Under the pieces are notes generated by a model. It searched no databases, was not told where the DNA came from, and was given only the letters and a program-made list of their open reading frames with translations. A program made the translations under genes and the position numbers. From positions 96,001 through 160,000 of the forward strand of contig JBGAIQ010000006.1 in assembly GCA_044225365.1 (NCBI GenBank): 64,000 nt of DNA. Reading direction: 5' to 3'. Below are positions 42,401 to 58,956 of the stretch, piece after piece (positions within the stretch are counted from its first letter, which is position 1; each line of letters starts with the position of its first letter). The stretch is from Planctomycetota bacterium (GTDB lineage Bacteria; Planctomycetota; B15-G4; JADJEK01).

Positions 42401-43638
42401 GACAACGCCTCCCCGAACGCCCGTGCGACGGCGAGTCCGCTCTTCACTCCGTCCTCGTGGAACCCGTAACCGAGGTAGGCCCCGCAGTAGAACGTGTTCC
42501 GGACTCCTTGGATCGAATCGACGCGCGACTGCGCTTGGATTGCGTCCCGCGTGTAGATCGGATGTTCGTATTCGAACTTCTGCAGGATCGCGCCGCTGGC
42601 GAGGCGCTCGTCGCGATTCAGGGTCACGCAGTATTCGCGCTTCGACGTGAGGGACTGCAGCCGGTTCATCCAGTAGGTCACGCCGAGTTCACCTTCTCCG
42701 TCGCGATGGTAGTTCCACGCCGCCCAGGCCTTTCTCCTCCGGGGCAGGATCGACGAATCGGTGTGCAGGGTGACGGCGTTCTTCTGATACGGGATCGCGG
42801 AGAGGACGGCACGTTCCGCGTCACTCGGATCCTCGAGCATGCGTAACGCTTGATCGCTGTGGGCCGCGATGATGACGCGATCGAATCTCTCCACCGTGCC
42901 GCCGCGCGTCCGGACGTGTACGCCGTCCGCGTCGCGTCGCACGCTCGCGATCGGGCAGTTGGTTCGAACCGAGTCCTCGAAGCCAGCGACGAGTCGCTCG
43001 ACGTAGGTCGACGAGCCGCCCTTCACGACGTACCACTGCGGACGATCGTCCACCGTCAGGAATCCATGATTGTCGAAGAAGCGCGCGAACGTCGGGAAGG
43101 GGAACTCGAGCATCCGCGAGGGCTCCGCCGACCAGATCGCGGCGCCCATCGGCACGATGTAGCGCTCGACGAAACTTCGGCCGTATCCGTGCTCGCGAAT
43201 GAAGTCACCGAGAGTGATGTCGGCGGAACCATTCGCGGCAAAGCGCGTCGCGTCGCGATTGAATCGCAGGATGTCGCGCACCATCGACAGGAAGCTCGGG
43301 CGGAGGAGATTCCGTCGTTGCGCGAAGAGGGTATCGAGCGAGGTTCCGTTGTACTCGATCCCGGAGTCCTCGCACCGCACCGAGAAACTCATGTCGCTCT
43401 TCTGGGAGGCGACGCCGAGCGCTTTCAGCAGTCGAATGAAGTTCGGATACGTGCGTTCGTTGAAGACGATGAATCCGGTATCGACCGCGAGCTCGCGATC
43501 CTCGTCGCGGACTCGCACCGTGTGCGTGTGGCCGCCGATCCAGTCGTTGGCTTCGAATAGGGTGACCTCGTGGTGCCGGCGCAACAGGTACCACGCCGTG
43601 AGACCCGAGATCCCCGCTCCGACGATGGCGATCTTCAT
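42397..43638 (-). CDS. FAD-dependent oxidoreductase (UfaD-like)
   Basis: IVGAGISG, GGHTHT, VDTGFIVFN..TYPN, GYGFHEDG. Confidence 0.92.
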   Translation of the reverse strand: MKIAIVGAGISGLTAWYLLRRHHEVTLFEANDWIGGHTHTVRVRDEDRELAVDTGFIVFNERTYPNFIRLLKALGVASQKSDMSFSVRCEDSGIEYNGTSLDTLFAQRRNLLRPSFLSMVRDILRFNRDATRFAANGSADITLGDFIREHGYGRSFVERYIVPMGAAIWSAEPSRMLEFPFPTFARFFDNHGFLTVDDRPQWYVVKGGSSTYVERLVAGFEDSVRTNCPIASVRRDADGVHVRTRGGTVERFDRVIIAAHSDQALRMLEDPSDAERAVLSAIPYQKNAVTLHTDSSILPRRRKAWAAWNYHRDGEGELGVTYWMNRLQSLTSKREYCVTLNRDERLASGAILQKFEYEHPIYTRDAIQAQSRVDSIQGVRNTFYCGAYLGYGFHEDGVKSGLAVARAFGEALS

Positions 43639-44639
43639 GATCGTTCCGGCTGCACGTTCTTCGGATCACGGGCCTCACGACGGACTCCGGCACGCTCGCC
43701 GGGATAGACGTGCGCAGGGACGGGGCGCAGATCCGAGATGAGCCCGAGAGCTTCGAGGACGCGCAATCCCAGGTACGTGATGTCGATCTCGTACCAGGCG
43801 AAGCCCTGCTTCACCGAGTGCGGGTAGTGATGGTGATTGTTGTGCCAGCCCTCGCCGAACGTGAGCGCCGCGAGCCACGGGTTGTTCCGACTTTCGTCGC
43901 CCGTCTCATAACGCCGGGAGCCGAAGCGGTGCGAGAGTGAATTGATCGTGCAGGTCGCGTGGAAGAGCACCACGGTCGAGATGAAATACCCCCAGACCAC
44001 GAGTTGCATTCCGCTCGTCCCGAGTTGCGGAGATGCGAGTTCCAGGAACCGACCGACGGCGTAGAGGGAGGCGGCGAGGATCAGGGGGGCGAAGGTGTCG
44101 AAGCGGTCGAGGAATCTCAGTTCCCTATATCGGGCGAGATCGGGAACGGCTCCCACGGGAGTCGCGAAGTTCTCCTTCGACATGATCCATCCCATGTGCG
44201 ACCAGAGCATCCCGTGCCGACCCGGTGAGTGAACGTCGTCCGCGGTGTCGCTCACTCGATGGTGATTGCGATGGTGTCCCGCCCACCACAAGGGTCCGCG
44301 CTGCGTCGCGGTCGCGCCGGTGAAGGCGAAGACGAATTGCATGAATCTCGAAGTACGGAACGAGCGATGGGAGAAGTAGCGGTGATAGAAGCCGGTGATG
44401 GCGAACATCCGAACGGCATAGAGCACGAGCGCCGCGGCCACCGCGATCGTGCTCACGCCGTAGACGAATGCGAGCAGACACGCGGCATGCAGCAGGACGA
44501 ACGGCAGGCATCGCAGCCAGTCGATCTCCTTCGTCGTCGGGTTCGCCATCGGAGCGTGCGCGTTGTCGAACCAACGCCGCAACGTCGCAAGCACACTCGA
44601 GCGAAGGCCCGTGGATCTCTCCGCCGATCGAGATCTCAC
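43635..44639 (-). CDS. Acyl-CoA (delta-9-type) desaturase
   Basis: His boxes HRYFSH, HRNHH, HNNHH. GTG overlaps the upstream stop (alternative ATG at 44549). Confidence 0.93.
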
Positions 44640-45697
44640 GAGCGCCCTCCATTGCGCTTGCTGAAGAGGTAGTGAGCGACCCACCACTCCGAGCCATCGT
44701 TCCAGGCGAACAGCTCCGCGCAAGCGAGGAAGAAGACGCGCCAGCGTTGGAACCACTTCTCGCCCTCGCCCGCGCCGTACGTGCGATCGAAGAGCGCGAT
44801 CACGGCATCGCGATGGCGATCGATCCGATCGAGCCAGGCTTCCGCCGTCCTCCCGTAGTGGACGCCGCTCACGACCCAATGGTCGTCCGCGGCGAGATCG
44901 TCCTGGAAGTGCAGAAAGAGGTCGTCGGAGGGCATCTGGCCTCCGGTGAAGAAGTACCTCCCCATCCAATCGTCGTCGCTCTCGGTCTCGAACGGATAGG
45001 CCGCCTGCTTGTGACAGAAGACGTGGAAGAACAGCTTGCCGTCGGCTTCGAGCCAGGTCGCGATACGCGCGAAGAGCTCCTCGTAGTTCCGAAGGTGCTC
45101 GAACATCTCGACCGACACGACCCGATCGAATCGCGCTTCGCCTGCGTGCTGCGGCGGCTCGAACGTGTTGATGTCGGCCGTGATGATCTCGACGTTCGTG
45201 CGCCCGATCTCCGCGAGTCGTTTCTCGATGTGCTTCTTCTGCGACGCGGAGTTCGAGACCGCGACGATCCGGGCATTCGGATACCGCTCCGCCATCCAAA
45301 CGGTGAGCGATCCCCAGCCGCAGCCGAGTTCGAGGATCCGCTGGCCATCCGCGAGATTCGCGCGTTCGCAGGTCATACGGAGCATGTCGGCCTCGGCGAC
45401 GTCGAGGTCGGCCACCCCTTCGTTGAAGTAGGCCGAGCTGTACTTTCGATGACGACCCAGCACGAGTTCGAAGAACTCGGGCGGCACTTCGTAATGCTGC
45501 TCGTTGGCAGCGCGAGTCTCGATCGCGAGCGGACTCTGCCGCAACGCCTCGATCCAACGGCGCTGACGCTCACTGCGCGCCTCGACTCCGCCGCGTTCGA
45601 GCTCGCCGATTCGACGCTTCAGGAGCCTTCGAATGCCGTAGCGGAGCATGGGCCGCGGCACGATGCCTTTGTCGATGATGGTGTCGAGGAGGGGCAA
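44636..45697 (-). CDS. SAM-dependent methyltransferase (Cfa-like, coclaurine-N-methyltransferase-like clade)
   Basis: [31 protein letters not shown]. Confidence 0.9.
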
Positions 45698-45706
45698 GTT
45701 CGAACC

Positions 45707-46510
45707 TCAGGCTGAAGTACGGGGGAACCAGGGAATGAACGGGCTCGTGGTGCGCTGATACTCGCGATACGCGTCGCCACGCGAGCGGAGCGCCTGCGTC
45801 TCGGTCGGCGGGATGCCGGTGACCTTGAGCACGAGGAGGAGCATCACCGGCGGCGCGATCCAGGTCATCCAGTCGTAACTGAAGGATCCGCCGCTCGCGA
45901 GGATGGGATACGCGAGCCAGTGCAGCCACTCGAAGAAGTAGTTGGGATGCCGAGAGTATCGCCACAGGCCGACACGACAGACCTTGCCTCGATGACTCGA
46001 ATCCGATCGGAACCTCTCCAATTGTCGGTCGGCGACCGCCTCACCGAGGATCGATGCGACGAAACAGGCACCCCCGAACGCCAGTGGCAGCGCAGTCCCA
46101 GGAGGATCGAGAAGGACACCGAGACAGGACAAGGACAGCACGACGACGGAGAGAGCCTGAGCCTGGAAGAAGCCGAAGAACCAGCCGTGCGCCGAGGCGC
46201 CTTTCGCGGCGCGGATCGCCGCATAACGCCCGTCCTCCTTCACGTGCCCGAGGACGCGGTGCGCAAGGAGATGCCACGCGAGCCGGACGGCCCACGTGCA
46301 GACGAGGACGACGACGACCCACGACGCCGCATCTCGCCGCTCGAGCGCGATCGCGTAGAAGATCGCGGTCGGCGCGAAGGCGAACGACCAGACCACATCG
46401 ACGATGCTCGCGTCCTCCCGACGCTTCTGGACGACCCACGCGGCCGCGAAGAGGACGGCAAGGCCGCCCCAAGCGAGCAGGAGGATCGAGGTCGTATGGA
46501 GCACCGTCAT
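45707..46510 (-). CDS. DUF1295 (steroid 5-alpha-reductase-like) membrane protein
   Basis: VDVVW, EDGRY, AD.QL..F, GLWRYSRHPNYFFE. Confidence 0.92.
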   Translation of the reverse strand: MTVLHTTSILLLAWGGLAVLFAAAWVVQKRREDASIVDVVWSFAFAPTAIFYAIALERRDAASWVVVVLVCTWAVRLAWHLLAHRVLGHVKEDGRYAAIRAAKGASAHGWFFGFFQAQALSVVVLSLSCLGVLLDPPGTALPLAFGGACFVASILGEAVADRQLERFRSDSSHRGKVCRVGLWRYSRHPNYFFEWLHWLAYPILASGGSFSYDWMTWIAPPVMLLLVLKVTGIPPTETQALRSRGDAYREYQRTTSPFIPWFPRTSA

Positions 46511-46528
46511 GGGAGTCTCGTCCTCCCC

Positions 46529-46556
46529 TTCGCAGCCGGCACCCAACCTGGATTCA
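46529..46556 (-). promoter_or_regulatory. Putative ECF promoter of the lipid operon
   Basis: TGAATCC-N17-CGAA just upstream of the GGAGG RBS of the DUF1295 gene. Confidence 0.5.
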
Positions 46557-46597
46557 ACCGCCTGTCTTTTTTTCGAGATGAGCCGCGTCCGTCGGGG

Positions 46598-49501
46598 TCA
46601 TGGGACCTTGCACCGTTCCAAGCCGGCCTTCGCCGCATCGAGCAGCCCGCCACGCGCTCCGAGATCGATCACGCGCGAGTAGCACGCCTTTGCGAGCGGC
46701 TTCGCATCGTCGCCCTCCGAGCACTCGTAGACGCGCCCGAGTTGGAAGAACGGCTCTGCGGTGTACGGAAAGGCCTCCGCGAGACCCCGAGCGTCCGCGG
46801 CGAGCTTCGTATCGGCGTGATCGCCGCGAGCGAATCGCTCCGTGCGCGCGGTGATCGCTGCGAGACGATCGATGTACGCAGGGGACGCCCCCTTCAGGAA
46901 TTCGTCGCTGATGCGCGTCATCGCATCGATGTCGCCATCGTTCGCGAGTCGGTCGTAGACGCGGGATCGCAACGCGAGGTTGCCGGACACCGCGAGAAGT
47001 CTCTGAGTGATCGCCGTGACATCGCGATCGACCCGGGATACGGCGTCGATCAGCGCCCGATCCACTGCGCCGGTGCAGGCCGTCTCGATCGCCTCCGGGC
47101 GCGTACCGACGAAGAGTCGGCGTCCGAGGCGTTGATCGAGGGTGTCCGCGATTCGAGCAGCGTCGTTGCGATCGTGATCGAGGCCGGAGACGACGAAGTC
47201 GCACGCCGAGACTCCGACCGCGAACTCGGCATCCGCATAGACAGCGAAGGCCGGTCGCGAGAACGGGAGTTGAGTGGGACCCGAATCGACCCACTCACCG
47301 CCCGCCGCGATCACCGTCCTCGCGACGAGCGCCGCGAGCAACGCAGCCCCTTCCGACCCGCAGAGGTAGGCCCCCCTGGTCACGCGAAGCACATCGATCA
47401 CGTCGTCGACTCCGCGCGCTTCGGTCGGCAGCGACAATCCGAATCGCTCGCGTGCCCCGTGATCCGCGGCGCCGAGGAACGCCTCGATTGCGGCCGGCGA
47501 TTCGATCGCAGCCCAAGGCGAGCTGAACTTGCATTGCGCGATCGCGTCGCGCGCGACCTCGCGCATCATCTGCGCGGACGGGAGCGCGCACGCTCCTCCG
47601 AGTCGCCGCGCGTCGTCGAGCGGGATCGAGTAGAAGTTCCACCGCGATCCCTTGTCGTCGAGCGCCGAGGTCGCTGCGAAGAGGAGCTTCCCTCCGGCGA
47701 CACTCATCCCGACGCCGTCCGTGCCGCCGAGGAGGCGTTCGCGCGAGCCGTCCGCATGAATCCACCAGATCCCGTAGGTTTCGTTCTCCGGGGCGCCCGT
47801 GAAGAGGACACCGTCGTCGGCTCGCGCCAGTTCGCGCAGGTACGAGTATCGCAGCAGGTCGGTACGCACGCCGCTACGGAGGTCCAGGCTCGAGAGGGAG
47901 CCGGGACGATCCCCCGAAACGTCGACCTCGGTGACGCCGACGTACAGGAGCTTCGCCGACGCATCGAGTTGACTATCTCCGACCCAGCCGGGTCTCCACG
48001 TCGCGATCGGTCGCTCGGCGCCATCCACTCCACGCAAGACGAAGTCGATCGGAACCGCGGTCTCTTGGACCACGAACCCGAGCGGGACGGGACCCTTCGT
48101 CGCATTCGAGTAGCGGACGAGCGCGATCCCAGAGTCGGTCTCGCCGCAGAGTCGCGTCGCGGAGAACGACACCGGGGCCTCCTGGCCTTCCGGGCCGATT
48201 CGAACGAGTCCGTCACGGCCCTGCGTGATCAACGAGTTGCCGAGCGTCGAGACTCCCCGACCCTGTACCTCACTCCCTTCGTAGAGAGGTTTTGCAGCGA
48301 CGAAGTCGCGCTCGATTCGCAGGATGGACCGGCGAGTCGTGACGAGGATCCCACCGTCGAGGGCGGCATCGGCATCGACGACATCGAAGTCGAGGCTCGT
48401 AACGAATCGGCTCGCCGAGAGGAAGGCGGCGAACTCCGCTCCAGGTGTCCTGTGCGCCTTGGAAGCGGGCGGCAGCGTGAAGGGATCGAGGGGTCGAGGA
48501 GGATCGATCGTGATCGAATCGATCAAGGCCCGACGGATGCGGGAGACGGATTCGACCGGCGCTGGGTAGATCAGTCGGATGTCGATCGTTCTCTCGGCGG
48601 AGATCTCCGCGACGATCATCTCGATCATTTGCCCCTTGTTCCCAGGCATCTGGCGGACTTCGCGCAGGGCCGGCTTTCCGGCGAGTTGGAAGCGAGTGCG
48701 CGGCATCTCGGCGGGGATCGACTCGTCGCACCCGACCTTGGCGACGATGTCGTCGAGTACTCCCTCGAGTCCCGCGGGATCGGGCTTCGAACCTCGTAGG
48801 AAGTGGACCGCCACGTCCCCGTTGGGGCTGACGAGCGAGAGCAGAGGATCGTTCGCGACCTTCTTCGCGTCGATCTCCGCAGGCACGTGCGAGACACGCA
48901 CGGCCGAATCGTCGACTCGCACGATGCGGGTGCGCGGGCGCGTCGACCGTCCCCACGGGCTCTTCGCGCTCGGGAATTCGAGAGCGGTCCGAAGCTTCGT
49001 CCCATCGGCCTCGCCGTCCTTCGCGCGATCGGCATCGATCTGGGACAGGATTAGGAAACCTAGTCCATTGCGCGATACGACCTGGACCACTGCGTGGCGT
49101 CGAACCTTGAGCTCGGTGATCTCGCACGAGAGTCGGCTCCAGTCGGTCTCCGTCGTCGAGGACTCCGAGGAGTGGAACTCGAACTCCGACGTGATCTTCG
49201 CGTCGAGATTGCGGTCGAGCGCACCGAACCAGTTCTCGATCACTCGTCGATGATCGGCCTCGACATCGACGGTTTGGCCGCACTCGACGACGAACAAGTA
49301 CGTGTACGCCTTCTTCTCGGAGTCCACCTCGCGAACGAACTGGTCGTCGCCGGCGCTCGCCACGATCCGCTGCCGCCTCCATCCCTCGTCGCAGTGCATC
49401 TTCGCGCCATGGGTCCCGATGTCGAAGTCTTCGCGCGCGATCGAGACTCGAGCCCCGGCGAGACATGCGAGCGCGACGATTCCATCGGCGATTCGGCGCA
49501 C
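46598..49501 (-). CDS. Large secreted hypothetical protein (probable beta-rich/propeller middle, TPR-like C-terminus)
   Basis: AAGGAGG RBS before GTG 49501, signal peptide, FFQLGRVYE...AKACYSRVI TPR-like end; about 967 aa. Confidence 0.7.
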   Translation of the reverse strand: MRRIADGIVALACLAGARVSIAREDFDIGTHGAKMHCDEGWRRQRIVASAGDDQFVREVDSEKKAYTYLFVVECGQTVDVEADHRRVIENWFGALDRNLDAKITSEFEFHSSESSTTETDWSRLSCEITELKVRRHAVVQVVSRNGLGFLILSQIDADRAKDGEADGTKLRTALEFPSAKSPWGRSTRPRTRIVRVDDSAVRVSHVPAEIDAKKVANDPLLSLVSPNGDVAVHFLRGSKPDPAGLEGVLDDIVAKVGCDESIPAEMPRTRFQLAGKPALREVRQMPGNKGQMIEMIVAEISAERTIDIRLIYPAPVESVSRIRRALIDSITIDPPRPLDPFTLPPASKAHRTPGAEFAAFLSASRFVTSLDFDVVDADAALDGGILVTTRRSILRIERDFVAAKPLYEGSEVQGRGVSTLGNSLITQGRDGLVRIGPEGQEAPVSFSATRLCGETDSGIALVRYSNATKGPVPLGFVVQETAVPIDFVLRGVDGAERPIATWRPGWVGDSQLDASAKLLYVGVTEVDVSGDRPGSLSSLDLRSGVRTDLLRYSYLRELARADDGVLFTGAPENETYGIWWIHADGSRERLLGGTDGVGMSVAGGKLLFAATSALDDKGSRWNFYSIPLDDARRLGGACALPSAQMMREVARDAIAQCKFSSPWAAIESPAAIEAFLGAADHGARERFGLSLPTEARGVDDVIDVLRVTRGAYLCGSEGAALLAALVARTVIAAGGEWVDSGPTQLPFSRPAFAVYADAEFAVGVSACDFVVSGLDHDRNDAARIADTLDQRLGRRLFVGTRPEAIETACTGAVDRALIDAVSRVDRDVTAITQRLLAVSGNLALRSRVYDRLANDGDIDAMTRISDEFLKGASPAYIDRLAAITARTERFARGDHADTKLAADARGLAEAFPYTAEPFFQLGRVYECSEGDDAKPLAKACYSRVIDLGARGGLLDAAKAGLERCKVP

Positions 49502-49539
49502 GGAACTTCCTCCTTCGGACGCCCGCGCGCGGGCCCGAG

Positions 49540-50316
49540 TCACGGCTGAGCGAGTGCAGCGATGCGGGATCGGTCCGAAACCACCACCCCGCCCGGTTTC
49601 TCCACGGTCACGGCGAACAACGCGGGCTCGGTCACGCGAATCTTCGCTTCGATCGGCACGATCGCGTCCGGGCCCTCGCAGTCGAACACGCCGCCATCGA
49701 CCGGGTAGCGATCGTCGCGCGTCTTGTCGAAGATCCACAGTTGGTATTGCTCGGCCTTGGCCTCGTTCGCTTTGAGGCCATGGAAGACCATGAAGCCCCG
49801 CTGCTCCTCAGAGGACCACACCACCTCGCCGTTCATACCGGACCCGGTTCCAAGCGGATCCGGCCCGGCCTTCCAGTTCCAACGCTTCACATCGTGCGCG
49901 CGCGCGACGAGGCGATCCACCTCGAGTTGCGCCGCGGCGAGCGAGCGGTCGCCGAAAGTCTCGCGGGGAGTCTTCAGCAGGAAGAGGAATCCCGTGAGGA
50001 CGACTGCGGCTGCGGCGAGATAGACGAGCGTATGCAAGCGGCGGAGTCCCTTGGGCGCCGATCGGGACTCGCCGGCCTGGGCCGTCGCCCGCAGGATCCG
50101 ATCCCGCAGTGATGGCGGTAGCGGCTCCCGATCGCGCGCAGCGATCGCAAGGTCGGCCTCGGCGACGGTCTCCATCAGCACTCGACGGGGCACGTCGCGA
50201 TGTCGCGCGAGCAGATGATCGAGTTCGCTGCGTTCCGACGCCGCGAGGCAGCCGAGGGCCTCGTCGGCGAGCAGTTCGAGCAAGCGCTCGCGCTCGGTTC
50301 GAAGAGTGCCGCTCAT
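49540..50316 (-). CDS. Anti-sigma factor, RskA family
   Basis: N-terminal ASD (LL...ALG.L...E), TM, QYQLW, FAVTVE.PGG..VS. Confidence 0.9.
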   Translation of the reverse strand: MSGTLRTERERLLELLADEALGCLAASERSELDHLLARHRDVPRRVLMETVAEADLAIAARDREPLPPSLRDRILRATAQAGESRSAPKGLRRLHTLVYLAAAAVVLTGFLFLLKTPRETFGDRSLAAAQLEVDRLVARAHDVKRWNWKAGPDPLGTGSGMNGEVVWSSEEQRGFMVFHGLKANEAKAEQYQLWIFDKTRDDRYPVDGGVFDCEGPDAIVPIEAKIRVTEPALFAVTVEKPGGVVVSDRSRIAALAQP

Positions 50317-50897
50317 GATGGGACCTCCGCCGAACCCGAAGCTCGGGGGTCGCCGGGTCGATCGTCCACTTCACCAAGGAGTCGCTTCACGGCGAGCAGT
50401 CCGCGGCGAGCGTGGGACTTCACCGTCCCGAGCGGCAGCTTCAGCAGACGGGAGATTCCGTCGTGTGAGATCCCCTTCATGATCGAGAGTTCGAGGATCC
50501 TGCGGCGTTCGGGATCGAGTGTGTCGAGAGCTTTCCGCACTCGCGAGGTCTCGTCCCCGATCTCCGCGACCGACTCCTCGGGAATGGGCGCGGATGGTTC
50601 GGCGACATTGTCGAGCGATGCGGTCCCTGCCTGACGCTCGGCCTGACGACGACGATCGACGATTCGCCGCCGCGCGATCATCGCGACGAACGCGGCCTCG
50701 GGCGCGATCGTCGCATCGAAGCGCGCGGCCGCCTTCCAGATCGCGACGAAGGCGTCCTGCGCGGCGTCCTCCGCGTCGGCGGCGCTGTACGACAATCGGC
50801 GAGCGAGCGACCAGACGAGACCACCGTAGCGATCGAGACACTCCTCGACCGCCTTGGGATCACCTCGCCCGATACGTTCCAGGATCGATTCGCTCAC
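50313..50897 (-). CDS. ECF sigma factor (SigK-like)
   Basis: GGAGG RBS before GTG, DAEDAAQDAF..IW, SH..I...L..PLGTVKS..RRGL; ATGA overlap with rskA. Confidence 0.9.
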   Translation of the reverse strand: MSESILERIGRGDPKAVEECLDRYGGLVWSLARRLSYSAADAEDAAQDAFVAIWKAAARFDATIAPEAAFVAMIARRRIVDRRRQAERQAGTASLDNVAEPSAPIPEESVAEIGDETSRVRKALDTLDPERRRILELSIMKGISHDGISRLLKLPLGTVKSHARRGLLAVKRLLGEVDDRPGDPRASGSAEVPS

Positions 50898-50964
50898 GCG
50901 CTCGCAACTGCCTCCAACGTCGCCCTGCGCACGGACTGCGCGGGACGAGGAGGATGGAACCGAA

Positions 50965-50992
50965 TTCTGCGCGGCATCGCAACCGGGAATCA
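50965..50992 (-). promoter_or_regulatory. Putative autoregulatory ECF promoter
   Basis: TGATTCC-N17-AGAA, similar to the 46529-46556 motif including part of the spacer. Confidence 0.4.
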
Positions 50993-51304
50993 GGGCGATC
51001 TCGTCGATCTCGCATTCGCGACCGTGCGGGTGCGCTCGCGCATCTCTTGCCCAGGCAGCGTGAATCACCGCGAACGGCGAAGAAGCCGCCTCGAATCCGG
51101 TGCAGGTGGAGACCAAGGTTCTCGGGCTCTCGTTTCGAGGTTCGGTCGCGCGCCGAGACGGAGTGCCTCTACGATCCCGCGCAACGGCTGTTATCCTGTG
51201 GCGAGCCCGCGACGGATGCAGCGAAGCCGGAAAGACTCGTTGCGAACGGCGATCAGGTCGCAGTACACCAAGGCGTTCATCGAGAGACGAAGAGACCGGG
51301 CAGC

Positions 51305-52717
51305 ATGTTCGAGCGATTCACCGACACGGCGGCGGAGGCGCTGCGCATAGCGGAGCGCGAGGCGGATGCCGCGTGCCGTAGTGCGGTTGGGAGCGAGCAC
51401 CTGCTCCTCGGGCTCTTCCAGGTGCGAGCCGTCGCCTCGATCGTGTTGAGACAGTCGGGGGGAGATCTCGACCGCTGCCGCGCCCATCTCGCGAAATCGA
51501 TGGGTGGCGCTCACGTCGCGATCGCACGTCACCTCCGCCGCGCGCTGCGCAAGAGCCTTGGCGACGTATCCCAGCGCTACAGCACGAACCTCGCCCGAGT
51601 GCTCGCCCTCGCGGAGGAGGCCGCTCGCGAACTCGCACACCCCAAGGTGGGGACCGAGCACCTGCTCTGGGCGCTCGTCGAACACGCGGATGGAATCACT
51701 CGATCTTACTTCGAGTCGATCGAACTCTCACCGGAGCAAGCTCGGCGACAGATCCTCGAGATGCTGCGCGTCGCGCAGACGGCGTTGAAGGATCAGGGAG
51801 CGGACGATCGTCGCGGAAGGAAGCGTCGGTCACCTCTGCTCGACATGTTCACGACGGATCTCGTGCGTCGCGCGCGAAAGAACAAGCTGCCGCGATTGAT
51901 CCGCCGCACTGCCGAGGCGCAACGCATCCACGAGGCGATGCTCCGCATGATCGCGCGCAATGCGCTCGTCGTCGGCGAGAACGGGTGCGGGAAGACCGCT
52001 CTCGTTCAGACCTTTGCCAAGGAGATTGCGCTCGGCGGAGCCCCGGAACCGCTCCTGCGCAAACGCATCCTCGAACTCGATCCCATCCTCCTCGTCGCCG
52101 GCACGAAGTACCGCGGGGAGTTCGAAGAACGGATCACGAACCTCCTGCTCGAGATCCAGAAGGCGGGCGACGTCATCCTCTTCATCGACGACGTCCATCT
52201 CCTCGCACTGCCGTCCACCCAGGGCAGGAATGACGGCGCGGCCGGTGTGTCGAATCTGATGCACTTGCTCTCGCCCGCGATCGATCGATTCGAGGTGCAG
52301 ATGATCGCGACCTGCGCCAAGAGCGCCGAGTCGCGGGTCATCGAGCAGTTCCCGACGCTCGGCACCGCGTTCCACCGTATCGTGCTCTCCCCTCCCAGCC
52401 GCGACGTGGTGCTCGCGATCCTGAACAAGAAGCGACCCGAATACGAGGCTCATCATCGCCTGCGGATCGAGCCCGCGGCGCTCGCGACCGTTCTCGCCGC
52501 GGCCGAAGCGTCGCTCGGCGTGGATCCATCGGAATCGCTCGTCGTCTCCGCACTCAAGATGCTCGATCGTGCCGCGTCGGAGGCCGTGCTCGATCGCGAA
52601 CTGCGCAACCGCGAACGCACCGCCCTCGATGCCGCAGCCGTACGCGAACTCCTCGTCCTCGCGCAGGCGAACCCGCGCCATCCAACGCCAACGGCGAAGG
52701 CGGATTCGAATGCTTGA
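51305..52717 (+). CDS. Truncated ClpC-like protein 1 (double Clp-N + AAA+ D1 only)
   Basis: MFERFT start, GSEHLLLGL/GTEHLL, Walker A GENGCGKT, pore loop GTKYRGEFEER, Walker B ILFIDD; 470 aa, no D2. Confidence 0.88.
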   Translation: MFERFTDTAAEALRIAEREADAACRSAVGSEHLLLGLFQVRAVASIVLRQSGGDLDRCRAHLAKSMGGAHVAIARHLRRALRKSLGDVSQRYSTNLARVLALAEEAARELAHPKVGTEHLLWALVEHADGITRSYFESIELSPEQARRQILEMLRVAQTALKDQGADDRRGRKRRSPLLDMFTTDLVRRARKNKLPRLIRRTAEAQRIHEAMLRMIARNALVVGENGCGKTALVQTFAKEIALGGAPEPLLRKRILELDPILLVAGTKYRGEFEERITNLLLEIQKAGDVILFIDDVHLLALPSTQGRNDGAAGVSNLMHLLSPAIDRFEVQMIATCAKSAESRVIEQFPTLGTAFHRIVLSPPSRDVVLAILNKKRPEYEAHHRLRIEPAALATVLAAAEASLGVDPSESLVVSALKMLDRAASEAVLDRELRNRERTALDAAAVRELLVLAQANPRHPTPTAKADSNA

Positions 52718-54428
52718 ACGAGCTTCCGAACGCTGCCGCGACGCGCTCGAACGGGCGCGGCAACACGCCCTGCGGTTCCGCCACACACGGATCGGCACTT
52801 CGCATCTCCTGCTCGGCCTGCTCGACGAGGGCGCCGGCGTCGGGACATCGACGCTCCGTCACCTCGGTGTGGAGGTCAAGGTCGTCCGCGCCGAGATCGA
52901 GAGTCGCCTGCAGCCGGGAGCCGGAGTGATCGGGCGCAAGGCGATGCCCTTCGACGAGGAGTGTCGTGCGGCGCTCGCCGCGGCCGTGGGAGCGGCGAAG
53001 GAGCGCAACAGCCCCTACGTCGGCACCGAACACCTGCTCCTCGGTCTGCTCGCCGACGCTCACAGCTTCTCCGCTCGCGTACTCGACAAGTTCGGGATCA
53101 CGCACAACGACGCCGCCGCGGCAGCCGCCGAGTTGAAGGCGGATCCGCAGCGCCCCGCGTCCGCCCGGGCGCAGGATTCCCGGGATCGCAAGCCGCGTTC
53201 GCCTCGCCTCGGACCCACGAGCCAGCTCGACACCATCGCCGTCGACCTCGCGAATCGCACGCAGCGCCGTCAACTCCGTCCCGTATGTGGTCGCTTCGCC
53301 GAACTCGAACGCATCAAGCACCTCCTCTCCCAAGAGCCACGCACTTCGGTATTCGTGCTCGGCAAGAGCGGAGTGGGCAAGACGTCGGCAGTGTTCGCGC
53401 TCGCGCGCGACATCCTCATCGGCAGCGTCCCGTCCGCACTCCTCGGCAAGCGCATGCTCGCGATCGATCCCGTACGACTTGCCGCGGGATGCCGGCACAA
53501 GGACCAGCTCGAACAACGCGTCGACGAGATCGTCGCGCAAGCCGAACGCGCACGCGACGTGATCCTCGTGTTCGACGATGCCGGCTGGCTCTTGAACGGG
53601 GTGCATGACATTCATGATCACCACGACGGCCACATCGGCCACTTCGAGGGAACGACGCACTCGCTCCAGCGCGGTCGCGAAGCGCGCGACGACGCGCCAG
53701 CCGGACTCGAGAGCGAACGACCGTCCAACCCGGACGTCACCGACATGTTCGCGCGCTTCCGACCGGCGCTCGAAGCGCGCCGACTCCAGGCGATCCTCAC
53801 CCTCGCGCCGAACGGCGAACCGGACGCGGAGAGCAAGCTCCTGCGGGCGAACTTCGGTGATTGGTTCGAATGCGTCTCGCTCTTCCCGGCCGACATCGAT
53901 CGGACTCTGATGACGGTCTACGAACTGCGGGAGCAACTCGAGAACCATCATCGGGTGACCATCACCGAAGATGCTCTGAAGACCGCCGTCCAACTCGCCG
54001 TTTCGGCGGGCGACAAGAACGATCTGCTCACCACCGCGCTCCGCCTCGTCGACGAAACCGGAGCACGCCTCACCGCACGCGCTTTCACCCCACCCGTTCG
54101 CGCCACCAAGCTGGTTCGCGAGATCGAGAAGCTCGAGGCCGCGCGCTCCGAGGCGTTCGAGCGCAAGGATCATTCCGACGCCGCACGACGCTTCGACGAA
54201 GCTCGCGCGAATCGTGAGCTGCTCGAACAGATCGAGCGACGCTGGCGCACGGAGCTTCGCGAGAAGCTGCGGGTCGTCGACGAGACCGCGATCGCGGAGA
54301 CCTGGTCGATCCACGGCGGTTATCGTACGGCTGAGCCGAATCGAGCGACGCCGCGGGCCGACGCTCCATCGTTCGAACCGCCCACCGAACCCACCGAGTC
54401 CAGCAAGCCATCGGACGGCGGCGCATGA
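52710..54428 (+). CDS. Truncated ClpC-like protein 2 (Clp-N + D1 with His-rich insert + UVR/M domain)
   Basis: GTSHLLLGLL/GTEHLLLGLL, GKSGVGKT, ILVFDD, UVR-like coil; 572 aa, no D2. Confidence 0.85.
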   Translation: MLERASERCRDALERARQHALRFRHTRIGTSHLLLGLLDEGAGVGTSTLRHLGVEVKVVRAEIESRLQPGAGVIGRKAMPFDEECRAALAAAVGAAKERNSPYVGTEHLLLGLLADAHSFSARVLDKFGITHNDAAAAAAELKADPQRPASARAQDSRDRKPRSPRLGPTSQLDTIAVDLANRTQRRQLRPVCGRFAELERIKHLLSQEPRTSVFVLGKSGVGKTSAVFALARDILIGSVPSALLGKRMLAIDPVRLAAGCRHKDQLEQRVDEIVAQAERARDVILVFDDAGWLLNGVHDIHDHHDGHIGHFEGTTHSLQRGREARDDAPAGLESERPSNPDVTDMFARFRPALEARRLQAILTLAPNGEPDAESKLLRANFGDWFECVSLFPADIDRTLMTVYELREQLENHHRVTITEDALKTAVQLAVSAGDKNDLLTTALRLVDETGARLTARAFTPPVRATKLVREIEKLEAARSEAFERKDHSDAARRFDEARANRELLEQIERRWRTELREKLRVVDETAIAETWSIHGGYRTAEPNRATPRADAPSFEPPTEPTESSKPSDGGA

Positions 54429-55942
54429 TCGATGCAAATGCCGCAGGAGCGGAGGTCCAGGCATCCGCCCTCGAAGAAGCCATGACCGACACGACCGCGC
54501 CAGCTCCCACCGGATTGCTCAGCATCGCGATGCACGAAGCTCGCGAACTGTCGCACGATCACGTGGGAACCGAACATCTCCTGCTCGGACTCCTGCTCGA
54601 AGAAGGCGGAGCCGCACGGGCGATCCTGAACGAGCAGGGCATCACGGCCGAGCAGCTCCGAGCCGAGTTGAAGCGGGCGATCGGCGCGTCGACCGAAAAG
54701 GCTTCGAACAGTCCGCTCCCCATCACTCCGCGAGTGAAGCAAGCCCTCGAGAGCGGCGCCGAGGCCGCGCGACGCACCCATCACGGCGACGTTCGGTCGG
54801 AGCACGTGCTGCTCGGACTGCTCGATCAGGCCGATGGCCTCGCGCGGCGCGCGCTCGAGCGTTTCTCCGTCGACATCGATGAATGCCGCCGCCGCACGCA
54901 GGAGCGCCTGCGAAGCGACGCACAGAACGACGACAAGCCCGAGCCGCGCGAGGCCGAGATCCCGGCGCTCGAAGCGTTCGGCGAAGAAGTGGCGGTTCGC
55001 GAATCCGAGAGCCTCGGGCTCGCGCCCATTCCGCCATTCGACCATGCAGTGCTCGTCGGACTCCTGCGGCGGGAGAATCGGGCGATCCTTCTGTGCGGAG
55101 CGAGCGGCTGCGGAAAGACGAGCGCCGCGAAACGGCTCGGCGCCGCATTGCGTTCACGACGCGGGGCGTTCGAACTGCCGCTGCGCCGTCTCGTCGCGAT
55201 CCCGCTGCCCTGCATCGTCGCCGGCGCGCGACACCGCGGGCGAGTCGAGGAACGCCTGCGCATCGTGTTCAAGGAAGCGGCGGAGAGTGGCGACGTCGCG
55301 CTCTTCTTCGACGACTTCGAGTGCGTCCTCGGCTGCAACGAACTCGCGCTCGCGCTCGAACTCGCGATGGCGGCTTTCACGATCCCGATCGTCGCCGCCA
55401 TCGATACGGTGGCTCTCGAGACGCTCGCTCGCAATCACCCCTCGCTCTACTCGCGATTCGTGCGAATGGCCGTCCCACCGCTCCTCGAGACCGCGCTCGA
55501 TGCCGCGCTTCGCGAGCAGGCGAGGCGACTCGAGCAATTCCATTCGATGCGGATCACGGATGCTGCGCTCGTCGCTGCCGCCGATGCCGGTTCGGCCGAT
55601 TCCCGCGGCCACGGCGCGTCGCGCCTGTCGAACGCGATCACGTTGCTCGACCGCGCGGCCGCCGCGGTTCGCGCCGCGATGCTGCGGCCGTCGCCTGCGA
55701 TCAAGACCGTGCTCGCGGATGCGATCCGCTTCGAGCGCGAGGCCGATCAGGCCGCCGCCGAGGGTGACGAGCGCCGATGCGCGAGTCTCGCCGCCAAAGC
55801 AGGCGCCTCGCGAGCGACCGCTCACGCGCTGATCCTCGCGTTGTCCTCCACGGCATCTTCGGTCGAACTCACGGCCGAACACGTCCAAGTTGCGCGTCGT
55901 CGCGCCACCGCACGTCCGCCTTCACCCAAGATGCACACCTGA
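54425..55942 (+). CDS. Truncated ClpC-like protein 3 (Clp-N + degenerate D1 + M-like coil)
   Basis: GTEHLLLGLL/SEHVLLGLL, GASGCGKT, GARHRG.VEER, ALFFDD; 505 aa, no D2. Confidence 0.85.
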   Translation: MIDANAAGAEVQASALEEAMTDTTAPAPTGLLSIAMHEARELSHDHVGTEHLLLGLLLEEGGAARAILNEQGITAEQLRAELKRAIGASTEKASNSPLPITPRVKQALESGAEAARRTHHGDVRSEHVLLGLLDQADGLARRALERFSVDIDECRRRTQERLRSDAQNDDKPEPREAEIPALEAFGEEVAVRESESLGLAPIPPFDHAVLVGLLRRENRAILLCGASGCGKTSAAKRLGAALRSRRGAFELPLRRLVAIPLPCIVAGARHRGRVEERLRIVFKEAAESGDVALFFDDFECVLGCNELALALELAMAAFTIPIVAAIDTVALETLARNHPSLYSRFVRMAVPPLLETALDAALREQARRLEQFHSMRITDAALVAAADAGSADSRGHGASRLSNAITLLDRAAAAVRAAMLRPSPAIKTVLADAIRFEREADQAAAEGDERRCASLAAKAGASRATAHALILALSSTASSVELTAEHVQVARRRATARPPSPKMHT

Positions 55943-55952
55943 CAGGGCCAGA

Positions 55953-57440
55953 ATGTTCGAACGCTTCACCGATCGCACGCGCCGCGTGCTCGTCCTCGCG
56001 CGCCAGCACGCCCATCGCATGCAACACGCGGCACTCGAGGCGCATCACCTCCTGCTCGGAATGCTGGAAGAGGCGAAGGCGACCGACGGCAGCGCGGAGC
56101 GACTCCTCGGCATCGACATCGAGAGCGCCAAGGCGATGGTCGATCGGATCGCGCCGCTCGGCAACCGTCCACCCGACGCTCACGACGCGCTGCCCTTCGG
56201 TCCGTCCGCGCGTGCACTCCTCGTGCGCGCCACCGCCGAGGCCGATGCATCGCGTTCGGAGGGCGTCGATCTCGAACACCTCGTCCTCGCGCTCGCGCTG
56301 GATGAGAGCCACCCGGCGGCCAAGCTCGTCGAACAGAACGGACGATCGCTCGAACAGGTTCGTCGCGACGTGCGGGACATCCTCGCCCCGCGCGCGCACG
56401 AGCTCGAGTCGGTCGTCGAGGAGACGCATCGCACGCCTGCCCTGGATGCGTTCTGCCACAATCTCGTCGATCGCGCTCACCAAGGCCAGCTCGACCCGTT
56501 CGTCGGCCGAGGCGCCGAACTGGAACGTCTCTACGAGATCCTCTTGTGCCGCCGCGACGCCAACGCGCTGCTCGTCGGATCGAGTGGTTCCGGCAAGACC
56601 GCGCTCGCCCGCGGTCTCGCGATCGCCATCGCCGAAGGCACGGCTCCCACACCGCTGCTGTCGGCCAAGCTCTTCGCCGTCAACTCGCTTGCTCTTCTCG
56701 CCGGCACGCGGTATCGCGGGCAGCTCGAAGAACGCGTGAAGGCGCTGCTCTACGAAGCACGCAAGCTCTCGCAGGTCATCCTCTTCATCGACGACGCACA
56801 AGCGTTGCTCGGCGAAGAGGGCGCATCGACCGCTTGGCTCACCCACGACGTCCCCGGCGCCGGCTTCCTCTCGATGTTGAAGCACGCCTTCGACGCCGCC
56901 GAGACGAGGTTCATCCTCGCGCTCGACAGTGCGGCGCTCGCGCGCTTCCGCATCGCGCAGCCTTCGGCGCAGCGCCACCTCCAGGAGATCGACGTCGCAC
57001 CGGCGAGCAAGAGCGAGACCGGTGACATCCTTCGCGCACTGAAGCCCCAGTTCGAGCTCTATCACGACGTCCGCATCGACGACGCCGCTCTCGCGACCGC
57101 GGTGCTGCAACGCCCGCGCCTGCAATCGCCGGGAGACCCCAAGGACCGTGCGCTGCCGGGTCGAGCCGTCGATCTCATCGATCGGGCGTGCTCGGAGATC
57201 GCGCTCGCCTCGACCGAGCCGACCGAGGACCTGAAGCAGATCGAATCCGAGATCGCGCGACTCCAGCACGAGGAAGCGGAGAACGTGAAGGCGCGCGAAT
57301 ACATCGCGGCCGCCGCTGGCCGCGAAGCCCTCGACACCCTCGAGAAGCGCCGGGAGCGAATCCTGTCGGAGCGTCGCGGTCAACGCGCCGTCGACGCCGC
57401 CGCGATCGAGCGCGCGGCGGCCAGTCTCGCCGGCGTCTGA
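55953..57440 (+). CDS. Truncated ClpC-like protein 4 (Clp-N + D1 + UVR/M domain)
   Basis: MFERFTDR start, LDPFVGR, GSSGSGKT, GTRYRGQLEER, ILFIDD, LPGRAVDLIDRA; 495 aa, no D2. Confidence 0.88.
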   Translation: MFERFTDRTRRVLVLARQHAHRMQHAALEAHHLLLGMLEEAKATDGSAERLLGIDIESAKAMVDRIAPLGNRPPDAHDALPFGPSARALLVRATAEADASRSEGVDLEHLVLALALDESHPAAKLVEQNGRSLEQVRRDVRDILAPRAHELESVVEETHRTPALDAFCHNLVDRAHQGQLDPFVGRGAELERLYEILLCRRDANALLVGSSGSGKTALARGLAIAIAEGTAPTPLLSAKLFAVNSLALLAGTRYRGQLEERVKALLYEARKLSQVILFIDDAQALLGEEGASTAWLTHDVPGAGFLSMLKHAFDAAETRFILALDSAALARFRIAQPSAQRHLQEIDVAPASKSETGDILRALKPQFELYHDVRIDDAALATAVLQRPRLQSPGDPKDRALPGRAVDLIDRACSEIALASTEPTEDLKQIESEIARLQHEEAENVKAREYIAAAAGREALDTLEKRRERILSERRGQRAVDAAAIERAAASLAGV

Positions 57441-57448
57441 ACGAACGC

Positions 57449-58831
57449 TCAGCCGTCGAGCGGCAGGAGCCGCACGTTCTTGAAGTGGATCTCCGCTCCT
57501 TCGGACTGCAGGCAGATGTGGCCCTTCACGCGGTCGGCTTCCGAGCCTTCGTTGAGAATCGTGCCGTTCACGGAGAGAACGACCGTTCCGTGATCGACCG
57601 TGATGCGGTAGTGGTTCCACTCGCCGATCGGCTTCTCGAAATGCTCGCCCGCATGCGTGCGCTTGGTGTTGCGGCCGTTCTTGCGATCCGCCGCGGTCTT
57701 CACCGGGAATTCCTCGATCTGCCAGAAGTCACCCGCGCTGTCGGACTCGAGCTGGGCTTCGAGGGACTTCGGCCACACCATGTCCTTGCCCGTCATACGC
57801 ACGAGGACGCCGCTGTTGCGGCCGCCCTTGTCGCTCGGCTCCCACTGCCAGTCGACTTCGAGGATGTAGTCCTGGTAGTCGGCCTCGGTGCGGATGTAGC
57901 CGGCCGGGTTGCCCTTGCACACGATCATTCCGTCGCGCACCGACCACACCTGATCCATCTTCACGTTTGGATCGGTGAGGCAATAGGTCCAACCCTTCAG
58001 ATCCTTGCCATCGAAGAGATCGATCCACGTGTCCTTCACGTCGCCCGTCGCGGCCCATTCACAGCCGCGAACCAGGAGCCGCTGGAACTGCCAGTCCTCG
58101 TGGGACGTGTGCGTCTCCGGCTTGTCGCGCCATACGTGGCCGAGGGGCGTGTGGAAGACACGCGCCTTGCCGTACTGACCCACCATGATCATCGGTTCGT
58201 TCTGACCCGTGCCGCCTTCCTTGGGATCGGAGAACGCGGTCGCGAGGACGGTGTAGGGCACGTTCTGCGCGTTCACGAGTTTGTGATACAGCTCGTCGGG
58301 ATGCTGGCGCACTTCGCCGAGGCCGCGGGTGATCGGATGCGTGTAGTCGCCGATCGTGAGATCGAAGGGATGGTAGGTGCCATGGCCCGTCCCAGCGCGC
58401 CACAGGTGCCCGACGATCTTCTCGTACTCCGTGAATCCCGGGAACGCGTTGTTCGCTGCATGGATCACGGCGACGTTGACTCCACCGGCGACCGCCGCGA
58501 CGAAGCCCTTGTTCGCCGCATCGCTCCACGGCTTGCCGTTGTAGTCGAGCAGGATGAGCTTGTACTTCGAGAGCGCCGCCGCATCGGCCAGCGTTTCGCT
58601 CGGCGTCGTCGTGATCGTGACCTCGAACTTTCCGCTTCCCTCGAGCACGCGCTTCATGCTGCGGCTCGTGAAATCGAAGTCGTGGTTGTTCTCTCCGGTC
58701 ACGATGAGCGTCGGGATCTTCTCGGCGTTGGCGCGAGGGGCGATTGGCGGAACGTCGGCGGCGGACGCTCGATTCATCGTGAAGAGCGAAAGGGTGGCGG
58801 TCACGAGGGCGAGGATGGCGCGAACATTCAT
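57449..58831 (-). CDS. ThuA-like domain + DUF1080 (3-keto-disaccharide hydrolase-like) secreted protein
   Basis: TGENNHD, HPIT.G, DELY, RVFHTPLGH; LFDGKDL.GW, NSGV, GEWN, LQSEG..I.F.NV. Confidence 0.88.
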   Translation of the reverse strand: MNVRAILALVTATLSLFTMNRASAADVPPIAPRANAEKIPTLIVTGENNHDFDFTSRSMKRVLEGSGKFEVTITTTPSETLADAAALSKYKLILLDYNGKPWSDAANKGFVAAVAGGVNVAVIHAANNAFPGFTEYEKIVGHLWRAGTGHGTYHPFDLTIGDYTHPITRGLGEVRQHPDELYHKLVNAQNVPYTVLATAFSDPKEGGTGQNEPMIMVGQYGKARVFHTPLGHVWRDKPETHTSHEDWQFQRLLVRGCEWAATGDVKDTWIDLFDGKDLKGWTYCLTDPNVKMDQVWSVRDGMIVCKGNPAGYIRTEADYQDYILEVDWQWEPSDKGGRNSGVLVRMTGKDMVWPKSLEAQLESDSAGDFWQIEEFPVKTAADRKNGRNTKRTHAGEHFEKPIGEWNHYRITVDHGTVVLSVNGTILNEGSEADRVKGHICLQSEGAEIHFKNVRLLPLDG

Positions 58832-58956
58832 GACGAAGGGGGCTCCTGGCCGAACACTGGGATCGGCCGGGATGGTACTCTTATCCCTGTCCGCGAGAAA
58901 CCCGGAGTCGGTTCGCGACCGCACGGGATCTTCTGTGGAGAAGGAGCGAACCAATC

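Follow-up and report, generated by a model that had tools for sequence, protein, structure and literature searches.

Clp/Hsp100 machines have a central part in the quality control of bacterial proteins, and they serve as drug targets. ClpC is a class I member of this group, has ClpP as its partner and is regulated by McsB and MecA. In such machines the Walker B glutamate activates water, the arginine fingers act in trans, and the second AAA+ ring (D2) carries the loop for ClpP. The known accessory proteins of Clp are small adaptors or paralogues that consist of an N-domain only, and mycobacterial ClpC2 has no AAA module. A 2026 preprint treats ClpC2 and phosphoarginine (PMC13345244). In the plastid of Nannochloropsis, clpC has been disassembled into clpN, clpC1 (which is D1) and clpC2 (which is D2) (PMC3999925). 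Here, four adjacent planctomycete genes, called A to D, are described. They lie in a stretch of 64,000 nucleotides (the window), which is 96001-160000 of contig C63 (JBGAIQ010000006.1) in a metagenome-assembled genome of 103 contigs that is 94% complete. Their proteins keep the ClpC N-domain and the first AAA+ module (D1), have no D2, and lack residues needed for ATP hydrolysis. They are unusual and conserved, and are probably a kind of ClpC-derived accessory protein that has not yet been described: a full-text search of the literature found no paper on D1-only Clp proteins with a dead Walker B motif. An earlier reading made without database searches (the sequence-only reading) had already named the system as a candidate for something undescribed.

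Gene layout and domain architecture

The four genes are arranged as follows.

Gene A, 51305-52717, plus strand, 470 amino acids: Clp_N, D1 AAA domain and lid, without M-domain
Gene B, 52710-54428, plus strand, 572 amino acids: two Clp_N repeats, degenerate D1, lid and M-domain
Gene C, 54425-55942, plus strand, 505 amino acids: two Clp_N repeats, degenerate D1, lid and M-domain hairpin
Gene D, 55953-57440, plus strand, 495 amino acids: Clp_N, D1, lid and M-domain with conserved tip aromatic

Read directly from the DNA, the A/B junction is an overlap of 8 nt, B/C is an ATGA overlap and C/D is a gap of 10 nt, exactly the layout of four co-oriented reading frames that had been reported before. Gene D is the least diverged of the four. 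Where gene C starts is not certain: its orthologues are shorter by about 19 residues at this end, an internal ATG about 19 codons downstream offers an alternative start, and residues 1-27 of the protein model are of low confidence. The GC content by codon position (0.78-0.82 at the third and 0.46-0.52 at the second position) is like that of real genes in a genome of 65% GC.

Pfam finds Clp_N, AAA and AAA_lid_9 in each of the four proteins (Clp_N E-values 4e-6 to 1e-25), and AAA_2 and ClpB_D2-small in none of them. NCBIfam models of the ClpB/ClpA/ClpC type are matched over their first ~270-470 positions only, with scores of 75-212 bits where the cut-offs are 885-1900. When the whole genome was searched for families, no AAA_2 match turned up anywhere on contig C63, and together with the model matches confined to the first half this means that there is no hidden or frameshifted D2. 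The (L/I)GF loop that docks ClpP sits in D2 (PMC10149685), and since D2 is absent, the loop is absent from the four proteins, and from the rest of the contig, as well. The lack of D2 and of what is needed to dock ClpP had both been stated or implied by the sequence-only reading, and both hold. It had also let every protein end at or shortly after the linker between D1 and D2. In an alignment to the genome's own ClpC this is true of B, C and D, which end at the linker or a few residues past it, while the protein of gene A ends after a shortened lid. A UVR domain, which had been expected too, is matched by Pfam in none of the four. An M-domain in the form of a two-helix hairpin is modelled in C (residues 424-477) and D (425-477) and aligned in B; there is none in A.

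AlphaFold2 models of D (predicted local distance difference test, pLDDT, 91.0; predicted template modelling score, pTM, 0.70) and of C (pLDDT 89.8, pTM 0.64) both consist of an N-domain with the two-repeat Clp_N fold, the large subdomain of D1, and a lid with the M-domain hairpin. In a Foldseek search with the D model, ClpC structures rank first (9a66_A, 5e-30), and further top matches are the MecA/ClpC/ClpP complex of S. aureus, the ClpC resting state and the ClpC(1-485)/MecA complex. Following Walker B, the protein of gene B alone carries an insert rich in His, which falls in the region of the pore-2 loop (about residues 297-370, window 53598-53820) and has about 8 His in 20 residues. It is not found in the three B orthologues, is covered by contigs of ~95% identity from other studies, and is possibly a metal-binding loop.

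Catalytic and ligand-site residues

Motifs were compared in one alignment of 19 members of the A-D families and 13 full-length Clp proteins (10 ClpC from searches plus this genome's ClpC, ClpB and third two-ring Clp). Walker B reads DD in all 19 family members (A 5/5, B 4/4, C 4/4, D 6/6) and DE in 13/13 of the full-length proteins; that all four window proteins have DD and not DE is absent from the earlier description. Walker A, which had been seen correctly in each protein together with Clp_N and the lid, is kept as GxxGxGK[ST] in all four window copies (GxxGxGKT in gene A), and its Lys is replaced by Arg in 4 of the 19 members (P0125, P0127, P0245, P0010). The two arginine fingers of D1, both kept in full-length Clp, are gone from A (0/5) and B (0/4); C has one Arg, in the window copy only (1/4), and D keeps the first and has lost the second in 6/6. 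The pore-1 Tyr is present in A (5/5), D (6/6) and one of four B, and C has His in 4/4; full-length Clp have Tyr here and ClpB has Phe. In the window copies the pore-1 loop reads K-Y-R in A, R-Y-R in D and R-H-R in C and is degenerate in B, so that the pore-loop region that had been ascribed to each protein is canonical in A and D only.

Because the Walker B Glu, most of the arginine fingers and D2 have been lost, it is very likely that the four proteins turn over ATP too slowly for this to be of use, and it follows that they cannot feed a substrate into ClpP. The Walker A fold is kept, and we therefore infer that they still bind nucleotide.

For sites of ligand binding and contact, the equivalents of T7, E32, K85, E106 and F436 were compared. 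E32 and E106 are the glutamates that were mutated to kill the phosphoarginine sites of ClpC, and F436, the aromatic residue at the M-domain tip of S. aureus ClpC, mediates M-domain contacts (PMC12583610). The equivalent of E106, in the second Clp_N repeat, is kept in 19/19 family members, and that of E32, in the first repeat, in A (5/5), C (4/4), one of four B and none of six D. The tip aromatic is kept in D (6/6) and B (3/4) and not in C. The within-family identities of N-domain and D1 large subdomain are 0.64 and 0.60 in A, 0.50 and 0.42 in B, 0.58 and 0.44 in C, and 0.61 and 0.63 in D, compared with 0.70 and 0.81 in canonical ClpC. These values indicate that constraint has shifted toward the N-domain relative to canonical ClpC, with N-domains that appear as conserved as the ATPase core, or more so.

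Assembly checks and selection

A problem with metagenome-assembled genomes such as this one, with its 103 contigs, is that such genes could be misassembled copies of a full-length clpC. They could also be pseudogene remnants that drift neutrally; the four are highly diverged and their catalytic motifs are degenerate. The data make either explanation hardly credible. In the run that is probably the source, a Logan contig of 18,334 bp, which represents the same data put together by an independent assembler, covers 51000-57600 with 0 differences. In addition, the region is tiled by low-depth contigs of 94-96% identity in three runs from three other studies, and each junction has contigs that bridge it:

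A/B junction: X3 record 11 and X4 record 19
B/C junction: X4 record 20 and X5 record 29
C/D junction: X3 record 14 and X4 record 23

The variants listed against these contigs are 40 of 302 sites, and 39 of the 40 lie inside A-D. Of these in-gene differences 35/39 are synonymous (A 1/1, B 4/4, C 3/5, D 27/29), a pattern that points to purifying selection on the four genes. The sole listed in-gene indel comes to +3 nt in total. Codon-position GC like that of real genes, and open frames with orthologues of the same length at 41-59% identity, also speak against decay. Misassembly and pseudogene decay are ruled out as far as present data go. A-D are real, intact and conserved genes, neither debris nor misassembled full-length clpC. 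The sequence-only reading had judged them to be diverged yet open and not recent debris, and the orthologues, the bridging contigs and the synonymous changes bear this out; the check for misassembled full-length clpC, which it had raised, gave no support to that idea.

Orthologues, linkage and rarity

A search of a collection of 5.8 billion proteins gave three to five orthologues per gene, all from metagenomes:

D orthologues, P0006-P0010: 487-494 amino acids, 55-59% identity
A orthologues, P0125-P0128: 469-494 amino acids, 50-58% identity
C orthologues, P0243-P0245: 459-479 amino acids, 41-46% identity
B orthologues, P0281-P0283: 489-508 amino acids, 44-57% identity

Beyond these, the remaining matches are full-length Clp at ~35% identity or less. 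Linkage was deduced from the recorded size of the longest contig of each protein, and B was looked up for three representatives only, so its absence from other rows below means nothing. Seven contig sizes are common to more than one of the families:

Contig size 8936: A, C and D
Contig size 32058: A, C and D
Contig size 55109: A, C and D
Contig size 15719: A and B
Contig size 28242: A and C
Contig size 16710: A and C
Contig size 13083: A and D

This is indirect evidence, and it suggests that A-D are inherited together as a linked set. Homologous arrays in other genomes, which the sequence-only reading had put forward as a check, are thus indicated by common contig sizes in metagenomes but appear in none of 40 relatives from the same family or order. 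No orthologue was found in these relatives, where the best matches to D are full-length ClpC at 33-37% identity, and where short frames are either truncations at contig ends or proteins with multiple Clp_N and no AAA module. Pattern scans of 185,579 species genomes returned 53 loci for the D family and 17 for the A family, all of them ordinary Clp at 22-39% identity, and a D-family scan of metagenome contigs brought up a single full-length Clp and a fragment cut off at a contig end. AAA_lid_9 has 7 matches in this genome, compared with 2 in most of 121 sampled genomes of the phylum; five phylum genomes with 4-5 such matches contain only full-length frames and one broken remnant. A phylum search with the D1-only metagenome protein P0367 (301 genomes including this one) gave only full-length ClpC among the 150 matches listed. 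The A-D set is rare in reference genomes.

Descent and the wider class of D1-only proteins

The genome's own ClpC gives each of A-D a better score (163-241 bits) than their paralogues do (63-148 bits), and their descent from ClpC is clear. Their identity to ClpC is 26-41% in D1 and 34-37% in the N-domain. For the phylogeny against the host ClpC that had been suggested earlier, a maximum-likelihood tree was built from 58 rows and 490 columns of the N-D1-M region (a quick search with support from the Shimodaira-Hasegawa-like approximate likelihood-ratio test, SH-aLRT, only). Each of the families A, B, C and D is a clade with 100% SH-aLRT support, all 19 A-D rows form one group at 88, and A and C are sisters at 85. 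The stems of A-D measure 0.9-1.4 changes per site, compared with 0.03-0.17 for the end branches of planctomycete ClpC. The branching within families is congruent with the contig groups: the carriers with contig sizes 8936, 28242 and 32058 are close to each other in A, C and D. In A and C, those with 13083, 16710 and 55109 branch apart as a lineage of outliers; in D, their copy (P0009) goes with that of the window, though the support is weak (80). All this fits a history in which one D1-only ancestor was duplicated three times before the carriers split and was then inherited as a unit.

A representative search with B also found many proteins of ~440-510 amino acids that match over the N-domain and D1. 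Besides the three B orthologues, 27 were fetched; P0307 and P0361, which look like truncated or frameshifted ordinary ClpC, were dropped and 25 were aligned. They were chosen by length and match pattern and are not a census. Most of the 25 end within ~20 residues of the D1/D2 linker, and their Walker B reads DE in 2, DD in 7, ED in 4 and otherwise in 12. The ten that were looked up lie on contigs 2-48 kb long and carry the annotation 'ClpC' or 'AAA family ATPase'. In the ESM Atlas, clusters of 55-185 members have Clp_N, AAA and AAA_lid_9, with representatives of 433-578 amino acids, some labelled as fragments; these clusters occur in Actinomycetota, Acidobacteriota, Planctomycetota, Pseudomonadota and others. 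D1-only ClpC-like proteins with a degenerate Walker B thus appear to be a widespread, unnamed class in metagenomes. They occupy at least three places on the tree, and D1-only forms therefore probably arose more than once. It is worth noting that the paper on ClpI excluded shorter sequences as possibly fragmentary (PMC10149685).

Some proteins of the class, among them P0302, P0304, P0306, P0339, P0367 and P0416, are ~480-500 amino acids long and combine an M-domain and a degenerate Walker B with an N-domain that is close to that of canonical planctomycete ClpC. The genome itself has a fifth D1-only Clp-like gene on contig C70 (55320-56441, minus strand), which encodes 437 amino acids with Clp_N and a degenerate AAA domain (Walker B ED, degenerate pore loop); it stands alone between genes like thiamine-phosphate synthase and AIR synthase, near genes for XPB-type helicases. 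Another type of protein consists of repeated Clp_N only (at least 3 repeats, 470-640 amino acids, including P0246-P0251), and in two relatives of the same order lies just upstream of the canonical clpC.

Host Clp system and genomic context

On contig C97 (35574-39110), the canonical clpC of this genome (838 amino acids) is directly downstream of a gene for a McsB-type arginine kinase, and because of this kinase gene it is likely that the planctomycete uses phosphoarginine marking. Genes for ClpB, ClpX and a third two-ring Clp are present too, as are two clpP genes. No MecA was detected in this 94%-complete genome. A stand-alone D2-type Clp protein is encoded on the plus strand of contig C35. 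It has 462 amino acids, with an N-terminus of ~115 amino acids without assigned family followed by AAA_2 and ClpB_D2-small, matches positions 550-852 of the ClpB model, and has intact Walker A and B. By eye, it has a C-G-F tripeptide at the position of the ClpP loop of ClpC. Its best PADLOC matches are PDC-M37B (1e-32) and DolB (2e-25). PADLOC found no DolA-like match in the two neighbours of this gene, and a Dodola-like system at C35 is accordingly not established. PADLOC gives A and D only weak matches at the P-loop level (mad8 5e-5, TRIP13 8e-5, IetA 9e-4) and B and C none, which gives no support to the anti-phage role that had been considered earlier.

The surroundings upstream of gene A, with a gene for an extracytoplasmic function (ECF) sigma factor, are as follows.

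49540-50316, minus strand: RskA-type anti-sigma factor gene (context; not shown to be part of the operon)
50313-51116, minus strand: ECF sigma factor gene, divergent from gene A (context; not shown to be part of the operon)
51117-51304: intergenic region between the divergent ECF sigma gene and gene A, presumed promoter region

A promoter and terminator scan gave 0 promoter-like sites and 2 terminator-like sites where 3.9 are expected. Upstream of gene A, the scan found no sigma-70-like site and inspection by eye found no normally spaced ECF-type -35/-10 pair. No run carrying the locus and holding RNA data is among the sequencing runs listed. The two sigma and anti-sigma genes belong to a minus-strand cluster (42397-51116) that continues with a 979-amino-acid protein, a DUF1295 protein, a methyltransferase like cyclopropane-fatty-acid synthase and, further along the same strand, an amine oxidase. 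The 979-amino-acid protein (46598-49537, minus strand) has no Pfam, NCBIfam or PADLOC match. We take the cluster to resemble the ECF-controlled clusters for oxidative or singlet-oxygen stress. Directly downstream of the four genes, and convergent with gene D, is a gene for a fusion of ThuA and 3-keto-disaccharide hydrolase (57449-58954, minus strand).

Possible functions

Our preferred explanation, held tentatively, is that A-D form an ATP-locked hetero-oligomer, a scaffold and not an unfoldase, which holds clients or tunes the McsB-ClpC-ClpP pathway. The sequence-only reading had offered substrate-binding traps, modulators that co-assemble with ClpC and a heteromeric ring of four subunits, and all three stay candidates. 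An active motor of four subunits is hard to reconcile with a Walker B Glu that is lost in 19/19 and arginine fingers that are lost from A, B and C; non-hydrolysing scaffolds fit this better, and the proteins probably work by binding and not by unfolding. In this mechanism the divergent ECF sigma factor may drive expression, and the tightly coupled genes would be made in fixed proportion. The four proteins would co-assemble via the ordinary D1 interfaces of AAA+ proteins, bind nucleotide, hydrolyse little or none of it, and thus act as ATP-locked scaffolds whose working surfaces would be four different N-domains, two pore loops (in A and D) and two M-domains (in B and D). The hetero-oligomer might hold or sequester ClpC clients, or alternatively dock on the host ClpC by contacts of M- and N-domains and so tune the pathway. 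What counts in favour is the loss of D2 and of the motifs, the single origin, the signs of selection and co-inheritance, the translational coupling, the fold, the M-domain tip aromatic kept in D and most B, and the presence of mcsB-clpC and clpP in the host.

Several points weigh against this explanation. Co-assembly and binding are deduced from sequence, and linkage on other contigs is known from common contig sizes and not from gene order. The tie of A-D to ClpC is one of descent alone, and they are on another contig than mcsB-clpC. With Asp where Walker B normally has its Glu, slow hydrolysis could still occur, and the term 'non-hydrolysing' comes from general experience with AAA+ proteins. 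Four different subunits fit a hexamer awkwardly, the link to the ECF sigma factor is adjacency in one genome, and few variants were sampled in A (1), B (4) and C (5), with 40 of 302 sites listed.

A more specific version is possible, if doubtful: A-D would be a dedicated hetero-oligomeric pseudo-unfoldase, a single ATP-locked ring or spiral derived from ClpC that captures specific proteins, possibly phosphoarginine-marked ones, under an ECF-sigma stress response, and either keeps them from ClpCP or hands them over to it. Capture would use the four different N-domains and the two surviving pore loops. An alternative that we hold equally possible, again as something unlikely rather than probable, is that each D2-less protein is a free-standing modulator that enters ClpC hexamers or resting-state spirals by D1-D1 and M-domain contacts, and would lower or retarget ClpCP activity with four N-domain specificities. 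In line with this, N-domain and M-domain contacts control the assembly of ClpC (PMC12583610), the tip aromatic of the M-domain is kept in D and most B, and each protein scores higher against ClpC than against its paralogues. Single D1-only ClpC-like genes with a degenerate Walker B are common in metagenomes as well, and an array is therefore not needed for function. However, A has no M-domain and C no tip aromatic, and at a D1 identity of 26-41% the interfaces with ClpC may no longer fit. The tight translational coupling and co-inheritance of all four, moreover, suggest one complex and not four free agents.

A partial homologue of ClpC1, ClpC2, binds cyclomarin A (PMC10030653), and by this example A-D could soak up, as decoys or sponges, what normally binds the N-domain of ClpC, for instance proteins marked with phosphoarginine or natural products that target this domain. 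The dead D1 would then only oligomerise. With McsB in the genome, phosphoarginine marking is likely, the Glu of the second repeat is kept throughout and that of the first repeat in A and C, and the N-domains are the best-kept part of A, B and C. This explanation is nevertheless improbable: the Glu of the first site is lost in D (0/6) and mostly in B (1/4 kept), the N-domains are just 34-37% identical to that of ClpC, which is poor for a mimic, and a pure N-domain decoy leaves the conservation of pore loops, lid and M-domain unexplained. The comparison covers two to three site residues. Still less probable, to the point that we would be surprised by it, is a split unfoldase in which A-D would be completed in trans by a D2 protein encoded elsewhere, so that two-ring Clp machines are rebuilt, as has been proposed for the plastid clpC of Nannochloropsis. 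Plastid clpC does exist as separate genes for N, D1 and D2 (PMC3999925), and the stand-alone protein of contig C35 has intact Walker motifs. In this case, though, four D1 genes would face one D2, and the D2-only gene is on a different contig; no complementary D2 gene is linked to A-D on C63. The best PADLOC matches of the C35 protein point to another system, and the D1 parts are catalytically degenerate, unlike those of a working split enzyme.

In A-D, a whole D1 ring module that had lost its motor chemistry as well as the half that docks the protease has been maintained by selection over a long time, and has been multiplied to four co-inherited subunits. If A-D do assemble and bind clients or ClpC, this would be a new form of AAA+ protease regulation, by catalytically dead copies of an unfoldase. 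The same logic may cover many unnamed 'ClpC' proteins of ~480-500 residues in metagenomes that are now annotated as ClpC or dismissed as fragments. Should the pseudo-unfoldase version be true, it would be the first case in which an entire AAA+ unfoldase ring has become a regulator or client trap without motor activity, and the large unnamed class of ClpC paralogues with D1 only and a dead Walker B, which spans several phyla, would gain a function.

Comparison with known systems

A-D are like ClpC in their N-domain and in the large and small subdomains of D1, B, C and D have the M-domain hairpin in common with it, and ClpC structures are the best fold matches of D. They differ from ClpC in having no D2 ring, D2-small domain or ClpP-binding loop, in the change of the Walker B Glu to Asp, in the loss of most arginine fingers and in a D1 identity of just 26-41%, and their NCBIfam scores are far under the equivalog cut-offs. 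AAA+ modules that bind ATP without hydrolysing it and serve in assembly or scaffolding are found in the D2 ring of NSF, the D1 rings of Pex1/Pex6 and the delta subunits of clamp loaders. All of these sit within an active machine, whereas the A-D operon encodes no active partner.

ClpI of Actinomycetota is similar in being an extra class of ClpC-like paralogues with variable N-domains, some subtypes of which have no ClpP loop, but ClpI proteins are double-ring enzymes with intact ATPase motifs (PMC10149685). The clpC of the Nannochloropsis plastid is similar in that D1 is a separate protein with a single AAA module. There, however, the parts are complementary pieces of one machine, with a separate N-domain and a D2 gene present (PMC3999925), whereas A-D have the N-domain fused to D1, no linked D2 gene, and have lost catalytic residues. 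Mycobacterial ClpC2 is also a non-proteolytic partial paralogue of ClpC, with a ClpC-like ligand-binding domain, that acts by binding (PMC10030653). In contrast to ClpC2, A-D keep a whole, though dead, D1 with its lid (AAA and AAA_lid_9 in all four) and an M-domain in B-D, and they are four paralogues that appear to be inherited together.

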